Below are positions 6,636-54,022 of a DNA stretch of 62,293 nt, one piece after another (position 1 is the stretch's first letter; each line of letters starts with the position of its first letter). A program made the translations under genes and the position numbers. The DNA comes from Bdellovibrio sp. (lineage in GTDB: Bacteria > Bdellovibrionota > Bdellovibrionia > Bdellovibrionales > Bdellovibrionaceae), in assembly GCA_043759945.1 (NCBI GenBank), contig JAYUPS010000333.1, positions 1 to 62,293 of the forward strand. Reading direction: 5' to 3'. Below the pieces are notes generated by a model. That model did not search any database. It saw only the letters and a program-made list of their open reading frames with translations, and was not told the origin of the DNA.

Positions 6636-7742
6636 TTGAATCTTCGAATCATTTCGGGACTGTTAATCCTAGCGGTTTTCGGATCGGGTTGTGCCGGTCC
6701 CGCGACACCATTTGGGTCCGTGAATTGGCCCAGCTCTACCGCCAATTTTTTTCCCGACATCGAAAAGGTTTCAAGCTCAGCTCCGGGATACAATTTGCGT
6801 TTTTTCCCGGAACGACAAATCTTGCACGGCACCAATGACCTGGATCTTGTTATCGAAGACGCAGACGGCGTACTCGAAAACCCAAAACTGCAAGTTTCCT
6901 ACAATGGCCGAGACGTCACAGATAGTTTTATTGGACGCGCCGACAAGAGCTACACCGACGCTTCCAAACGCCGACTTAAACTGTCGGTCAAAGACTTCCG
7001 CCTTCCTTTACTAAGAAACCACGATATCCATGCGACCTATTGGCCGTCGAAACGAACCAAACCCGTACAAATCAGTTTCAATCCCCCAGTTTGCTCGGCC
7101 TTTAGTTGGAAAGGGCGGCTTACCAAAGTATCCGGTTTTGACGTGGATGAAGCCCTTATCAACTCCATCACCCACCAATCGACAACGCAAAGATACAGTC
7201 CGTTCCTGATTGCAGGTTTAATCGCGCAGGAATCGGGCTTCGATTCCAAAGCAGTTAGTCGCAGCCGCGCACTTGGGTTAACGCAGGTAACTCCCATCGG
7301 CGAGGCAGAAATAATCGACTTGTACCAGCATTGGCCACGCTATCCCGGCATCTCGGACATGGGATTTTTCAGCCTGCGAAGCGCGCTGGCCAACGGCGAA
7401 ATAAATCCGACGAATGAATGGCGACTGGATCCTGATTTATCCGTTCGCGGCGGAGTTGAGTATCTTAAATATCTAAACGACTACTGGAGCCGACCGGATA
7501 AAATGGCTTACATCGAAAAACATTTCCAAGGCTCTGAATTTAAGCGAAGTGAGATTTTACTGGCCAGCTACAATTCGGGCGCCGCAAGGGTCAGCCAGGC
7601 CCTGGAAAGTGACGGCGAAGACTTCCTAAAAAACTCGGAATTGGGCGAAGCCCGCAAATATGTAAAGCGCATAACCAGTTATTGTGATTACTTTTCACAA
7701 ACGGCTCAAATGGATCCTAGTGATCTGGGAGATTTCAGATGA
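6636..7742 (+). CDS. lytic transglycosylase (SLT domain) lipoprotein
   Basis: TTG start after GGATGGAGG. Lipobox LAVFGSGC. SLT motifs are LIAQESGFDSKAVSRSRALGLTQVTP and ASYNSGAARV. Confidence 0.8.
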   Translation: MNLRIISGLLILAVFGSGCAGPATPFGSVNWPSSTANFFPDIEKVSSSAPGYNLRFFPERQILHGTNDLDLVIEDADGVLENPKLQVSYNGRDVTDSFIGRADKSYTDASKRRLKLSVKDFRLPLLRNHDIHATYWPSKRTKPVQISFNPPVCSAFSWKGRLTKVSGFDVDEALINSITHQSTTQRYSPFLIAGLIAQESGFDSKAVSRSRALGLTQVTPIGEAEIIDLYQHWPRYPGISDMGFFSLRSALANGEINPTNEWRLDPDLSVRGGVEYLKYLNDYWSRPDKMAYIEKHFQGSEFKRSEILLASYNSGAARVSQALESDGEDFLKNSELGEARKYVKRITSYCDYFSQTAQMDPSDLGDFR

Positions 7743-37672: not shown

Positions 37673-38958
37673 AATTCTCCGTTAACCGCAGACTTGGTGA
37701 CGTCAAACAAAGTCAGCTGTTGCGCTTTGGGTTTCAACCGATTTTCCAAGGTGTCCGAATCAATCAATAGCAAATCCGCGTTGTGATCCGCAGTTTTTAT
37801 AAAAAATCGAGCGCGGTTCCACGCAATACGAAACTTTTTTAAGTCCTCGACGCGAAGCTTTCGATATTTCCGAACCAGGAGCATGCGGTCGACATTTCTT
37901 ACCCCAAATCCAGGCACCCTTAAAAGTTCTTCCCGTGAGCCGGTATTCACATCAACCGGAAAAAAACTGCGGTGCCCGATGGCCCATGCCGTCTTGGGAT
38001 CCAGCTCAAGAGATAAATTTTTATTTTTCTCGTCCGTCAGTTCCCCCGCCTTAAAATCATAGAACCGAATGAGCCAATCCGCTTGGTACAAACGATTTTC
38101 ACGAATCAGCGAAGGTTTCTCGACCGGAAGCAAAGCATCCGCATGGGGAATCGGACTGTAAGCCGAGTAATAGACGCGCTTTAATTTAAAGTCGTCGTAC
38201 AATTTTGACGAAGTCTCCAAAATACTTGCGTCCGTGCTTTCGGTAGCGCCCACGATCATTTGCGTGGTTTGACCGGCCGGCGCAAACTTCAAAACATTTT
38301 TAAATTTCTTTTGGTCTTCTTTGGTTTCGATAAGCTTTTCTTTGATCTGGCTCATTGTTGCTTCGGCGGCATCAATTGTTTTTGCCGGTGCCAAGCGATC
38401 CAGATCGGATTGCAGGGGCATTTCGATATTGGCGGAAATTCGATCAGCCCAGATCCCCGCTCGCTCGGTCAGCTCCTGGGATGAGCCGGCCACGACCTTG
38501 AGATGGATGTAACCGTTGAAGCGATGATCCTGGCGCAGGGATCTGGCCACTTCGATAAGCAGTTCCATGGTGCTGTCGGGGCTGTCGATAATCCCTGAGC
38601 TTAAAAATAATCCTTCGATATAATTTCGACGATAAAACTCAAGGGTCAGCCAAACGACTTCGGCCGGCGTAAATTTAGCTCGCTTGGTGTCACTCGAAAC
38701 GCGATTGATACAAAATTTGCAGTCATAAATGCAGTAATTGGTAAGCAGAATTTTTAAAAGCGAAACGCATCGGCCATCGGGTGTATAGCTGTGGCAAATT
38801 CCCATTCCTTCCACGTTGCCCATTCCGTTGGGATCACGGGTGCGCTTTGCGCCGCTGCTCGAACATGAGGCATCATATTTTGCGGCATCCGCTAAGATTT
38901 TCAATTTGGCTTGAACGGCGACGGCAGAGATGGTCGGCAGGCGTGCATTTTCATTCAT
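37669..38958 (-). CDS. putative DNA modification/repair radical SAM protein with C-terminal helix-hairpin-helix
   Basis: 429 aa. The CxxxCxxC cluster motif is CIYDCKFC. The HhH-like segment is ELLRVPGFGVRNVDRML. Confidence 0.8.
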   Translation of the reverse strand: MNENARLPTISAVAVQAKLKILADAAKYDASCSSSGAKRTRDPNGMGNVEGMGICHSYTPDGRCVSLLKILLTNYCIYDCKFCINRVSSDTKRAKFTPAEVVWLTLEFYRRNYIEGLFLSSGIIDSPDSTMELLIEVARSLRQDHRFNGYIHLKVVAGSSQELTERAGIWADRISANIEMPLQSDLDRLAPAKTIDAAEATMSQIKEKLIETKEDQKKFKNVLKFAPAGQTTQMIVGATESTDASILETSSKLYDDFKLKRVYYSAYSPIPHADALLPVEKPSLIRENRLYQADWLIRFYDFKAGELTDEKNKNLSLELDPKTAWAIGHRSFFPVDVNTGSREELLRVPGFGVRNVDRMLLVRKYRKLRVEDLKKFRIAWNRARFFIKTADHNADLLLIDSDTLENRLKPKAQQLTLFDVTKSAVNGEL

Positions 38959-38961
38959 AAC

Positions 38962-38978
38962 TTACATATAATTTACAT
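38962..38978 (-). promoter_or_regulatory. direct-repeat box TTACAT-ATAAT-TTACAT, 3 nt from the radical SAM start codon
   Basis: The plus strand reads TTACATATAATTTACAT. It is 16/17 identical to the box at 53415-53431. There is no SD between the box and the ATG at 38958. Confidence 0.5.
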
Positions 38979-51232: not shown

Positions 51233-53410
51233 TCATGAGATGGGGTCCGCTGTCATCTGATCCTTTGCCGGGGGCTCAATGCGTCTTCCGTTAATCATCA
51301 GAAGCAGCTGGGCTGCGGCCCGAGCATCGCACATCGCACGGTGATGTTGCTCCAGTTTAATATCAAAGTGACTCGTCAGATTTTTCAGGCTGTAAGAGGA
51401 AATTCCCGGAAAGTTTTTACGCATTCCGGCCACCGTGCACATCTGCGGACGAACATAATTTGAATCTAGTCTTTGGAATTCGCGCTGAATAAATCCGTAA
51501 TCAAACCTCACGTTGTGCGCGACAAAAATAGCGCCTTTGGTGAATTCCTGAAAACGATCTGCCACTTCGGCAAAAACCGGTGCGTTTTTTACCATTTCGT
51601 CATTGATTCCCGTGATCATCGTGATGTTGCGGGGAATCGGTCTTCCGGGATTTAGCAAAGTTTGAAACTCGTCGATAATTTCGCCGTTTTGGACTTTGAC
51701 CGCGCCGATTTCGGTACAACGGTGAAAACCTGAAGATCCCCCGGTGGTTTCTACGTCGACCACCACGTAAACTTGATTCGGATCCGTTTGCCAGCGCACT
51801 TTTAGTATTTCAACTTCAAAACCCGCTTCGGTCAGTAGTCGCACTTTAGAAAGTTGTTTGGTGCGAAGACTGTCGCCTTCGGCTTTTACTTCGACAAAGG
51901 ACGGAATGCCCTGTTTCACAACCATCAGATCCGGGTAGCCGCTGTGGTAAGAACTAAATTTTTGAGCCATCGTCCGAAAGATCAATGCCAAGTTTTTTCC
52001 CTGCGAATTTCTTAAAAACTCGAGCACCGTCGTTAAAAGATTGGGATGCCACTGAAAAATATCGTTCAGTTTTCCGTAATGCTGGGTCACGGTTTTCAAA
52101 ATGTATTTTTCGGTATTTTTTAGGTCCGAGAGAAGCAAAAGCTTTTTCTCCACGTCTAATTTGTGATTATCGTAGAATTCAGGACCCACAAGATCACTGG
52201 GGGATCGTTCAAAGGGATTAAAAATTGCCGTCCCTTCGTTTTCGAAGAGTTCGTCCCAAAACAAAAGACCAAAAAGTCCCACCCACAAATAATTTTCGGT
52301 AAAATGAGCAGCAAAGCCTTGTTTCCGAAAGAAATCGCGAACGCCACGCTCTGGTTTCCTAAGGTAAAAATCACTCAAAGTCAGCTCTTTGGCATTCTGA
52401 AGAATCTCGGTTAGATAACCGACTTTTTTCTTGTCAAATTTGCGCGCTAAAAAATCTTCGGCAAACAACAGTTCTTCATCGCCGGCTGGTTCTTGAATTA
52501 TCGCATTCAAAAGTGCGCGGCATTCTTCTTTGCGGCTGAGTTTGTAAAGAAGTCGCGCTTGGCGCTCTTTTGCCGGTGGAGTCCGGCATTCTGCCAAAGC
52601 TTGCAGAGCAATTTCGGGATCTCTGATCTCGGATTGACTTGCGATGTCCAATAAAAGTTGATCCTTCAACGCCAACGCTGTTGGCTTCAAATCCTTTTGA
52701 ATCTTACAAAAGTTCAGAAGCTCACGGACTTGTTCGGAGTCTTTTAGCTCCTGAAAAGTTTCAACTTTGTGGGATAATTGATACTCGGTGTAAGCTTCTT
52801 CCAAAACTGAAAAGCGAGGCTTAAAATTAGTTTTCAAAGTGCTCGTTTTGCGAATGCCCAAATCCCGTAGGGTGTACAAGCCTAATGATTTCTGAATTCG
52901 TCCAAAATACAGAAAAAACAGGTAGTCGAGATCCGCACCCTTTTTTTGAACAACGATATCCTCCGCATTCGGCAAATGGGGCAGCAACAAAGACTCTAGA
53001 TTTGTTCTGGCAAAATCGATAATTTCTTCTCGGGATGCCGAGGACTTGACCTCGAACCCTGATTTCAGGAGCCAGGTTCGTAAATTTGATTTGGTCAGAA
53101 AATCCGGAAGCTGGGATTTGTCCTGTTCGGCGGGAACCGCGACGAAACTTTTGCTCTGCAGTTCCGCGATGCATTGGATCGGGTCTGCAATTTCCGAATA
53201 CTTCTTAAAAGACTTCAGACTAAAGATTTCGCCTTTGCGGTTGATCATGCGTACGAATATGCACTGTGCGTCTTCCGACAATTCCCGGAACTCCAACAAG
53301 AATTCCTTGTGTGCTTCCTGGAGAACAGGTTGATAATGTTCCTCAAGCACTTCGATCAGTTCAAAAAAGTGATCCAAATAGTATTTGGCGGACAAAATCG
53401 GAAGTGCCAT
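51233..53410 (-). CDS. FAN1-like VRR-NUC nuclease fused to a C-terminal DnaQ/epsilon-type 3'-5' exonuclease
   Basis: 725 aa. The N-terminus YYLDHFFELIEVLEEHY...FVRMINRKGEIF is FAN1-like. The SAP-like segment is LTKSNLRTWLLKSGF. The VRR-NUC core is GYPDLMVV...SFVEVKAEGDSLRTKQ. The DEDDh exonuclease motifs are VVVDVETTGG, FVAHNVRFDYGF and HHRAMCDARA. Confidence 0.75.
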   Translation of the reverse strand: MALPILSAKYYLDHFFELIEVLEEHYQPVLQEAHKEFLLEFRELSEDAQCIFVRMINRKGEIFSLKSFKKYSEIADPIQCIAELQSKSFVAVPAEQDKSQLPDFLTKSNLRTWLLKSGFEVKSSASREEIIDFARTNLESLLLPHLPNAEDIVVQKKGADLDYLFFLYFGRIQKSLGLYTLRDLGIRKTSTLKTNFKPRFSVLEEAYTEYQLSHKVETFQELKDSEQVRELLNFCKIQKDLKPTALALKDQLLLDIASQSEIRDPEIALQALAECRTPPAKERQARLLYKLSRKEECRALLNAIIQEPAGDEELLFAEDFLARKFDKKKVGYLTEILQNAKELTLSDFYLRKPERGVRDFFRKQGFAAHFTENYLWVGLFGLLFWDELFENEGTAIFNPFERSPSDLVGPEFYDNHKLDVEKKLLLLSDLKNTEKYILKTVTQHYGKLNDIFQWHPNLLTTVLEFLRNSQGKNLALIFRTMAQKFSSYHSGYPDLMVVKQGIPSFVEVKAEGDSLRTKQLSKVRLLTEAGFEVEILKVRWQTDPNQVYVVVDVETTGGSSGFHRCTEIGAVKVQNGEIIDEFQTLLNPGRPIPRNITMITGINDEMVKNAPVFAEVADRFQEFTKGAIFVAHNVRFDYGFIQREFQRLDSNYVRPQMCTVAGMRKNFPGISSYSLKNLTSHFDIKLEQHHRAMCDARAAAQLLLMINGRRIEPPAKDQMTADPIS

Positions 53411-53414
53411 TGAT

Positions 53415-53431
53415 TTACATATTATTTACAT
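53415..53431 (-). promoter_or_regulatory. direct-repeat box TTACAT-ATTAT-TTACAT, 4 nt from the FAN1-DnaQ start codon
   Basis: The plus strand reads TTACATATTATTTACAT. It is 16/17 identical to 38962-38978. It lies in the 36-bp divergent gap between 53410 (-) and 53447 (+). Confidence 0.5.
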
Positions 53432-53446
53432 AGAGGATGCGAAGCA

Positions 53447-54022
53447 ATGAACAAAAATCGACTCGAGGCATTTAGTGATGGTGTTATGGCAATTATCATC
53501 ACCATCATGGTTTTAGAATTAAAGGTTCCTCACGGCGCAAGTTTTGAAAATCTAGTTCCCCTGGCTCCAATATTTTTAAGTTACATTTTGAGTTTCATCT
53601 ACGTCGGAATTTATTGGAACAATCACCACCATCTGTTTCAAATCGTAAAAGTCGTTAACGGTCCGATTTTGTGGGCAAATATGCATTTGTTATTTTGGCT
53701 TTCGATTACACCTTTTGTTACTGCCTGGTCCGGCGAAAATAACTTTCAGGAACTGCCCGTTGCACTTTATGGCGTCGCGCTCTTTATGTGCGGTGTGGCC
53801 TATTACATTTTGGCGCAGGTTTTAACTAAACATCATGGAAAAGATTCTGACTTAGCAAAAGCAATTGGCGACGATTTCAAAGGGCGACTTTCCTTGTTAA
53901 TTTATTCGATGGGTATCGGGCTGGCCTTTGTTAATCCCTACATTTCGCTGACGCTCTACATTGCCGTGGCGATTATCTGGCTCGTGCCAGACCGTCGAGT
54001 TGAAAAAGTCATCGAAGCTTAG
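53447..54022 (+). CDS. TMEM175 (DUF1211) family potassium channel
   Basis: RLEAFSDGVMAIIITIMVLEL is the signature first helix. There are 6 TM helices. Confidence 0.8.
   Translation: MNKNRLEAFSDGVMAIIITIMVLELKVPHGASFENLVPLAPIFLSYILSFIYVGIYWNNHHHLFQIVKVVNGPILWANMHLLFWLSITPFVTAWSGENNFQELPVALYGVALFMCGVAYYILAQVLTKHHGKDSDLAKAIGDDFKGRLSLLIYSMGIGLAFVNPYISLTLYIAVAIIWLVPDRRVEKVIEA

Follow-up and report, generated by a model that had tools for sequence, protein, structure and literature searches.

A gene joining a bacterial FAN1 nuclease to a DnaQ-type exonuclease, with a putative LexA operator, in a Bdellovibrio sp. genome

FAN1 orthologues, including the Pseudomonas enzyme, are monomeric 5′-flap endonucleases with 5′-3′ exonuclease activity (PMC4103454). 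We present here a gene at positions 51233 to 53410 of a 62,293-nucleotide stretch of Bdellovibrio sp. DNA (contig JAYUPS010000333.1, GenBank assembly GCA_043759945.1; the whole stretch is referred to as the window). Its product is a full bacterial FAN1, with the helix-turn-helix (HTH), SAP, helical/TPR and VRR-NUC regions in order, followed by a complete DEDDh exonuclease in one polypeptide. To our knowledge, most work on bacterial FAN1 has used it as a structural and biochemical proxy for human FAN1, and what the enzyme does in bacterial cells is not established. An initial annotation, made from the letters of the window, had described the fusion and proposed profile searches and a survey of its spread. 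To that description the present analysis adds a large family of single origin, frequently with predicted LexA control, whose exonuclease is most similar to that of Cho-like exonuclease-GIY-YIG proteins among the proteins compared.

Gene and domain organization

The open reading frame (ORF) is single and uninterrupted, lies on the minus strand (51233-53410) and encodes 725 amino acids and a stop codon, with an ATG start and no internal stops. Between this ATG and the nearest in-frame upstream stop lie five sense codons, none of which is a start codon, and the extent of the coding sequence is further supported by full-length conservation across protein clusters. On the same strand, the N-terminal half consists of the FAN1 HTH, or winged-helix, domain (residues 10-90; 53141-53383), a SAP-like helix pair (residues 106-137; 53000-53095), a helical, TPR-like middle (residues ~200-430; 52121-52813) and a VRR-NUC nuclease of the PD-(D/E)XK fold (residues 435-540; 51791-52108). 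An inter-domain linker ending in TDPNQV (residues 541-547; 51770-51790) leads into a DEDDh 3′-5′ exonuclease of the DnaQ/PolC type (residues 548-707; 51290-51769) and a C-terminal tail (51236-51289), in which residues 715-725 have a predicted local distance difference test score (pLDDT) below 50 and are likely disordered.

Three Pfam domains scored well above their cut-offs: FAN1_HTH (PF21315; residues 10-90, 66.8 bits versus 27, E value 1.6e-18), VRR_NUC (PF08774; residues 435-540, 56.8 bits versus 23.8, E value 2.9e-15) and RNase_T (PF00929; residues 549-703, 130.2 bits versus 24, E value 1.4e-37). The profile searches proposed earlier thus support FAN1-type N-terminal domains above Pfam thresholds. 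The SAP-like pair gave a weak Ish1 match (residues 106-137) that fell below the Pfam gathering score, and it is collinear with the SAP region of PaFAN1. TIGR00573 (dnaq) matched with 124 bits, exceeding its cut-off of 71.5, and all NCBIfam matches were to DnaQ-family exonuclease models lying within residues 545-710. In a sequence search of the PDB, residues 19-558 of PaFAN1 (4r89) aligned unbroken with residues 8-543 (E value 2.5e-28), spanning the HTH domain and the helical middle, and the Thermotoga PolC exonuclease (2p1j) aligned with residues 545-705 (E value 4e-29).

An AlphaFold2 (AF2) model built from 68 homologues had a mean pLDDT of 94.3 and a pTM of 0.86, with low confidence only in the last 11 residues. 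The middle domain is all-helical in this model. The linker is about six residues long, running between the last VRR-NUC strand (532-541) and the first exonuclease strand (548-555), and its pLDDT is high throughout. Foldseek matched the FAN1 half to PaFAN1-DNA complexes (TMt 0.81; 5y7g, 559 columns) and to human FAN1 (TMt 0.67), and the C-terminal domain to Pol III epsilon (TMt 0.87) and to the Staphylococcus aureus DinG exonuclease (root-mean-square deviation, 1.4 Å). Among the Foldseek matches listed, no PDB chain matched both halves.

The initial annotation had assigned a FAN1 layout to residues 1 to about 540 and a complete DEDDh exonuclease from about residue 545. The former is borne out by Pfam, the PDB sequence search, the AF2 model and Foldseek, and the latter by PF00929 and TIGR00573 scores above cut-off and by the presence of the active-site residues. 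The motifs on which these assignments had been based are likewise all present (YYLDHF, RMINRKGEIF, GYPDLMVV, FVEVKAEGDSLRTKQ, VDVETTGG, FVAHNVRFDYGF and HHRAMCDA).

Active sites

The VRR-NUC domain carries the PD-(D/E)XK signature as P493-D494, E507-V-K509, D513 and Q519, with D494, E507 and K509 as catalytic residues, and the middle domain holds E354 and the E372-N373 'TEN' motif. When 68 diverse fusion proteins were aligned (alignment A1; 31-70% identity), the columns of P493, D494, E507, K509, D513, Q519, E354, E372 and N373 were invariant in all 68. The same was true of the DEDDh site, in which D552, E554, H632, D637, H689, H690 and D695 were invariant in 68 of 68 proteins and the Exo I (D-x-E), Exo II (D) and Exo III (H-x4-D) residues were all present. 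Invariance of both sites across the 68 fusions argues that both activities are under purifying selection, and the exonuclease domain, by its residues, appears to be active.

Integrity of the gene

A fusion of this kind could be produced by a sequencing or assembly error joining adjacent fan1 and dnaQ genes in a low-coverage metagenome-assembled genome (MAG), and the MAG studied here has a coverage of only about 6× and is in 389 contigs. Contigs from two sediment-metagenome runs, however, cover the whole gene with 0 substitutions and 0 indels, and the domain junction (at about 51778) is crossed by a single contig without indels. The MAG may itself derive from these two runs, and greater weight therefore goes to conservation of the fusion across more than 100 independent clusters. 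The same in-frame junction is found in those clusters and in complete genomes of cultured bacteria, including Pseudoalteromonas piscicida, Pseudoalteromonas xiamenensis, Bradyrhizobium sp. 172 and Allohahella sp. A8. For practical purposes conservation of the junction already refutes an artefact, to which we assign a negligible probability; the gene is real and intact. The initial claim of one gene, as opposed to two genes separated by a frameshift or stop in the read data, holds on both counts, with no indels in the metagenome contigs and a junction conserved across clusters.

In both runs the Logan contigs are interrupted at one shared position within the gene (52129-52141), which is not the domain junction, and they overlap there by only 6-13 nt. 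The break may reflect strain variation or low coverage at that position.

Distribution and origin

At least 120 clusters at 90% identity matched in a database of 5.8 billion proteins, with 39-71% identity to the protein described here; nearly all were full-length and carried the three Pfam domains. When 1.84 billion representatives at 50% identity were scanned exhaustively with HMMER, about 100 full-length fusions of 700-790 amino acids (33-54% identity) were recovered, and stand-alone FAN1 proteins of about 550 amino acids (29-33% identity) ranked below all fusions in the same scan. The survey proposed earlier therefore reveals a large family, of about 100 clusters at 50% identity. The source names of the protein-search matches point to Bdellovibrionota as the phylum of the window. 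Within this phylum, the full fusion is present in only about 13 of 301 species genomes; one large genus, represented mostly by complete genomes, is without it, and some genomes have a stand-alone FAN1 instead.

Cluster look-ups outside the phylum led to a Planctomycetota MAG, Halobacteriovoraceae and Pseudoalteromonas sp. T1lg65. With a query that spans the junction, searched against a single genome from each species, full-length fusions of 704-781 amino acids were recovered in Woeseiaceae, Allohahella sp. A8, several Pseudoalteromonas, Paraglaciecola, Hellea, Neomegalonema and Bradyrhizobium oligotrophicum. PLSDB contains six full-length copies on large replicons, namely Pseudoalteromonas second chromosomes and two conjugative Bradyrhizobium plasmids, and these are annotated only as "exonuclease domain-containing protein". 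The fusion is not rare and is already in RefSeq under a generic name. A collection of 50,697 phage records held no full-length copy, which rules against a phage origin.

A literature search, incomplete and not proof of absence, found no description or characterization of a FAN1-exonuclease fusion; the initial annotation had likewise been aware of no characterized example. What is new is a variant built from the FAN1 family, DEDDh fusions and SOS genes, and no new category is proposed.

Maximum-likelihood analysis of the FAN1 portion placed 18 stand-alone FAN1 representatives apart from all fusions, across a long branch with a support of 1.0, and alphaproteobacterial, gammaproteobacterial and Bdellovibrionota members were interleaved inside the fusion clade. 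We conclude that the fusion arose once, long ago, and that it then spread horizontally and was occasionally lost. Three short, seemingly stand-alone sequences fell inside the fusion clade (P0229, P0234 and P0240), and all are truncated: P0229 and P0234 retain the DPxQ linker or the start of DIETTG, and P0240 ends after VRR-NUC. Repeated fission was rejected as their explanation, given that P0229 and P0234 are broken fusions with linker or exonuclease remnants.

Relatives of the exonuclease

Among the non-fusion proteins compared, the one most similar to the exonuclease was the N-terminal exonuclease of Bdellovibrionota exonuclease-GIY-YIG proteins of about 440 amino acids, with 52% identity. 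These proteins, exemplified by loci L095 (696-2015; genome G237) and L096 (627-1970; genome G150), combine an exonuclease with a GIY-YIG domain of the UvrC-N/Cho-like type and are common in one Bdellovibrionota family. The best NCBIfam match of the exonuclease was NF005906 (E value 3.6e-52), the model of the PRK07883 architecture. This match covers the exonuclease part only, with 177.5 bits against a cut-off of 495, and Pfam found no GIY-YIG domain in the fusion protein. Membership in the Cho-like PRK07883 family was rejected on these two grounds. In a model put forward for a mycobacterial Cho-epsilon fusion, the exonuclease starts at the incision and degrades the damaged strand through the lesion (PMC1564403), and MrfB is a DnaQ-family DEDDh exonuclease dedicated to repair of mitomycin C damage (PMC11194089).

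A role as the replicative Pol III epsilon subunit was also considered and rejected. The scores fall far below the epsilon equivalog cut-offs (TIGR01406 dnaQ_proteo, 99.5 versus 222.7 bits; NF004316, 94.2 versus 196 bits), so the fusion is not the replicative proofreader. The same genome encodes two other DnaQ paralogues of 207 and 296 amino acids, with 34-36% identity to the fusion exonuclease. The 207-amino-acid paralogue (L002, 1143-1766; own-genome contig C167) ends in KQLDLMSLF, which resembles a beta-clamp-binding motif, and it is a candidate for the true replicative proofreader.

The upstream box in this genome

A direct-repeat box, TTACAT-ATTAT-TTACAT (in gene direction, ATGTAA-ATAAT-ATGTAA), lies at 53415-53431, 4 nt before the ATG, with the sequence TTACATATTATTTACAT. 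It is the TTACAT-N5-TTACAT box that the initial annotation had noted at the start of the gene, and we consider it a putative LexA operator. The 16-mer TTACATATAATTTACA was scanned for over the whole 2.9-Mb assembly, the MAG being 92% complete. There were three exact sites against 0.002 expected: one precedes recA by 85 nt, one directly precedes lexA, and one precedes an operon of radical-SAM (COG4277) and UDG genes by 3 nt. One further site had a single mismatch, against 0.10 expected, and this is the site at the fusion gene; no two-mismatch sites were found, against 2.2 expected. The fusion-gene box therefore matches the sites at lexA and recA of its own genome with one mismatch. The lexA gene has a second, weaker copy of the box, and its two boxes overlap in opposite orientation.

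The predicted LexA regulon thus comprises only four sites, at lexA, recA, the radical-SAM/UDG operon and the FAN1-DnaQ gene. On the basis of the TTACATATAATTTACA scan, these are placed at C172:2947 and C382:915-947 on other contigs of the genome and at 38962-38978 and 53415-53431 in the window. Being one of only four predicted LexA targets in the genome suggests that the gene may be a core part of a very small SOS regulon. The title of a 2005 report by Campoy et al. reportedly places the canonical SOS genes of B. bacteriovorus outside LexA repression, and the four-site regulon described here, which includes recA, contrasts with what that title states.

LexA motifs vary and include direct repeats, and the COG4277-COG1573 operon is a recurrent SOS member (PMC8565304). 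Comparable to known noncanonical LexA operators, the box described here is a direct repeat with an 11-bp period and TTAC half-sites, and it occurs at lexA and recA, which is expected of a LexA operator. It is neither the alphaproteobacterial GTTC-N7-GTTC nor the B. bacteriovorus TTAC-N3-GTAA motif. A reading of the promoter as TTGCTT-N17-TAATAT, or as leaderless, comes from inspection by eye only. RNA evidence was not found, the sequence being contained only in DNA runs (sediment metagenomes).

LexA-type boxes at orthologues

The target of the box is ambiguous in this genome, where it lies in a 36-bp divergent region, and orthologues in lineages with established LexA motifs were examined for that reason. 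In five Pseudoalteromonas loci, the fusion gene is preceded at a distance of 18-43 nt by a canonical CTGT-N8-ACAG box (e.g., tACTGTTTAAAAAAACAGTa), and a one-mismatch version lies upstream of the fusion in another gammaproteobacterial MAG. Boxes of the form GTTC-N7-GTTC or GAAC-N7-GAAC, with spacers rich in A/T, directly precede the fusion gene in both of the two Hellea loci, one or two Neomegalonema loci, three Bradyrhizobium loci and two MAG contigs. Over 240,894 nt of loci, strict gammaproteobacterial matches numbered five, three of them at the fusion start, and six of the 11 strict alphaproteobacterial matches were at the fusion start. The TTACAT-N5-TTACAT box is without a counterpart at 10 of 11 Bdellovibrionota orthologue loci. 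The pattern suggests that SOS control is recurrent, under at least three different LexA motifs, and frequent, though neither universal nor obligatory.

In genome G184, which belongs to another family of the same order, the fusion gene is divergent from an adjacent radical-SAM (COG4277) gene, and the two share one TTACATATAACTTACA box (L014, 3676-3776). The two box-bearing loci of the window are therefore physically linked in that genome. On the Bradyrhizobium plasmid p172_1, the fusion gene is directly downstream of a gene annotated as 'SOS response-associated peptidase' (SRAP). This gene (L097, 1667-2416; Bradyrhizobium sp. 172) is of the SRAP/YedK type and on the same strand, with a GAAC-N7-GAAC box between it and the fusion.

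Two contigs binned as an 'uncultured archaeon' (L032) and a 'Patescibacteria group' member (L036) have the fusion gene behind a GAAC-N7-GAAC box. This box is of alphaproteobacterial type, which suggests that the contigs may be mis-binned; the fusion ORF of L032 is interrupted. In three Woeseiaceae loci (L017, L020 and L022), a conserved TT(T/C)GCTACATT element is located about 10-30 nt upstream of the fusion start, which is GTG in L022. The element may be the -10 element of a leaderless transcript or an operator of another kind.

Proposed function and alternatives

Taken together, the domain content, the conserved active sites and the upstream boxes suggest that the gene probably encodes an SOS-inducible, cytoplasmic, bifunctional 'incise and resect' DNA-repair nuclease. 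Inducibility, the substrates and cooperation between the two sites are parts that we infer, and 5′-flap activity is predicted from homology. In the proposed mechanism, LexA would bind the direct-repeat box just upstream of the start, at the expected core promoter, and DNA damage would relieve the repression. The FAN1 module would then dock on a nicked or branched lesion intermediate, such as a stalled fork, an interstrand or bulky adduct, or a flap, and incise the 5′-flap strand. This part, the N-terminal 545 residues, would recognize a nick or 5′ flap, cut the flap strand and degrade it in the 5′-to-3′ direction. The tethered exonuclease would take the 3′-OH end at the same junction, either a 3′ flap or the new incision end, and resect it 3′ to 5′. 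A single protein would in this way clear both polarities and leave a clean gap for repair synthesis or recombination. The same logic has been put forward for the Cho-like GIY-YIG nucleases of mycobacteria that are joined to an epsilon exonuclease, and resection in both polarities around a lesion is plausible.

Several observations weigh against such a repair function under SOS control. The box at 53415-53431 could instead regulate the TMEM175-like gene at 53447, across the 36-bp divergent intergenic region, and a simple sigma-70 consensus scan found no promoter at the box. Four genomes of the same family (G064, G280, G007 and G298) use the 16-mer elsewhere, with none within 13 kb of the fusion, and no recognizable LexA box was found at the Woeseiaceae, Allohahella or Paraglaciecola loci. 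As boxes are absent at some orthologues, SOS control would not be universal. In addition, two fusion orthologues (G007:C7:174161-176263 and G190:C2:385055-387148) have one or two in-frame stops and are possibly pseudogenes, and such internal stops would mean that the gene is dispensable.

The two domains might also act independently, the fusion merely co-expressing or co-localizing a flap nuclease and a general 3′-5′ exonuclease that do not work at the same junction, as in end-cleaning or in proofreading of gap-filling or translesion synthesis. This is conceivable in that DnaQ-like domains are promiscuous fusion partners, found joined to helicases (DinG), polymerases (PolC), Cas2 and GIY-YIG nucleases, and no conserved partner genes were found: in an all-against-all BLAST of the ORFs in 35 loci no neighbour was common across lineages, and clusters with members at several loci consisted solely of antisense shadow ORFs within the fusion gene. 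We nevertheless judge independent action unlikely. The linker is only about six residues long, conserved and confidently modelled, and the pTM of the model would argue for a fixed mutual orientation of the domains. The fusion has, moreover, stayed intact over about 100 divergent clusters since its single origin, and two of the three truncated derivatives, in keeping linker or exonuclease-start remnants, resemble broken fusions, not stable split genes.

We consider it quite improbable that the protein serves in offence or defence, as an anti-phage, anti-plasmid or prey-DNA-degrading nuclease, and not in chromosome repair. The host is Bdellovibrio-like and predatory, the distribution is patchy and resembles horizontal transfer, including to conjugative Bradyrhizobium plasmids, and VRR-NUC domains are known to act as type VI secretion system toxins (PMC9635880). 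However, the N-terminal part is a full FAN1 and not a bare VRR-NUC domain, inspection by eye, without a predictor, showed no signal-like N terminus, and neither a PAAR nor an Rhs delivery domain was found. The exonuclease matches the PADLOC candidate PDC-S48 and Cas-associated DEDDh models; a defence role was rejected here, the PADLOC matches being confined to the generic exonuclease domain. There are also no conserved immunity-like or defence neighbours and no full-length copies in the phage records, and the occurrence of such LexA boxes at recA and lexA as well speaks for the SOS response.

The order of HTH, SAP, helical and VRR-NUC regions and the PD...E-x-K...D...Q signature are those of PaFAN1 (4r89/4r8a/5y7g) and human FAN1, and the eukaryotic UBZ region is missing from both PaFAN1 and the fusion. 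Unlike PaFAN1, to which it is only about 24% identical, the fusion has an extra C-terminal DEDDh exonuclease, which is found in no solved FAN1. It differs from stand-alone bacterial FAN1 in forming a separate clade (support, 1.0), frequently with a LexA box upstream. With the exonuclease-GIY-YIG Cho-like proteins (PRK07883), it shares the tethering of a DnaQ-type 3′-5′ exonuclease to a structure- or lesion-specific incision nuclease, but the incision module is FAN1/VRR-NUC, of the PD-(D/E)XK fold, instead of GIY-YIG, and the exonuclease is C-terminal instead of N-terminal. DnaQ/epsilon, the PolC exonuclease and the Firmicutes DinG-exonuclease have the same DEDDh fold and motifs, but the fusion is without a helicase or polymerase partner domain. 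That a DnaQ-family exonuclease can be devoted to repairing crosslinker damage is shown by MrfB.

A more far-reaching and tentative proposal, which we hold as a possibility short of an expectation, is that the protein is a self-contained, LexA-controlled enzyme that incises and resects crosslinked or blocked DNA both ways, and that its exonuclease is a portable cassette for 3′-5′ resection placed in evolution on two unrelated incision nucleases, the GIY-YIG Cho-like enzymes and the PD-(D/E)XK FAN1. If true, this would provide the first physiological role for a bacterial FAN1 and a UvrC-independent branch of bacterial crosslink or fork repair. In a large clade of bacterial FAN1 with a single origin, a proofreading-type exonuclease is a permanent part of the protein, and in several unrelated lineages the gene lies behind what is predicted to be the lineage's own LexA operator, which would tie FAN1 to the bacterial DNA-damage response. 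The value of the family would lie in this link to the SOS response and in the tractable test system that it offers. The prediction of one-protein, two-polarity lesion processing is testable since the family occurs in cultured Pseudoalteromonas and Bradyrhizobium strains.

Neighbouring features

The second box of the window, TTACATATAATTTACAT (38962-38978), is 3 nt upstream of the radical-SAM (COG4277)/UDG operon, which starts at 38958, and it is assigned to the same predicted regulon. On the other side of the fusion-gene box, a gene for a TMEM175/DUF1211-like membrane protein (53447-54022) is on the opposite strand and starts 36 bp from the fusion gene. It could be co-repressed, the box being just upstream of its ribosome-binding site. 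At one orthologue locus (L029), a canonical LexA box, CTGTTTAAATACACAG (6718-6733), is found about 30 nt downstream of the fusion stop, with none upstream, and it may belong to the next gene.

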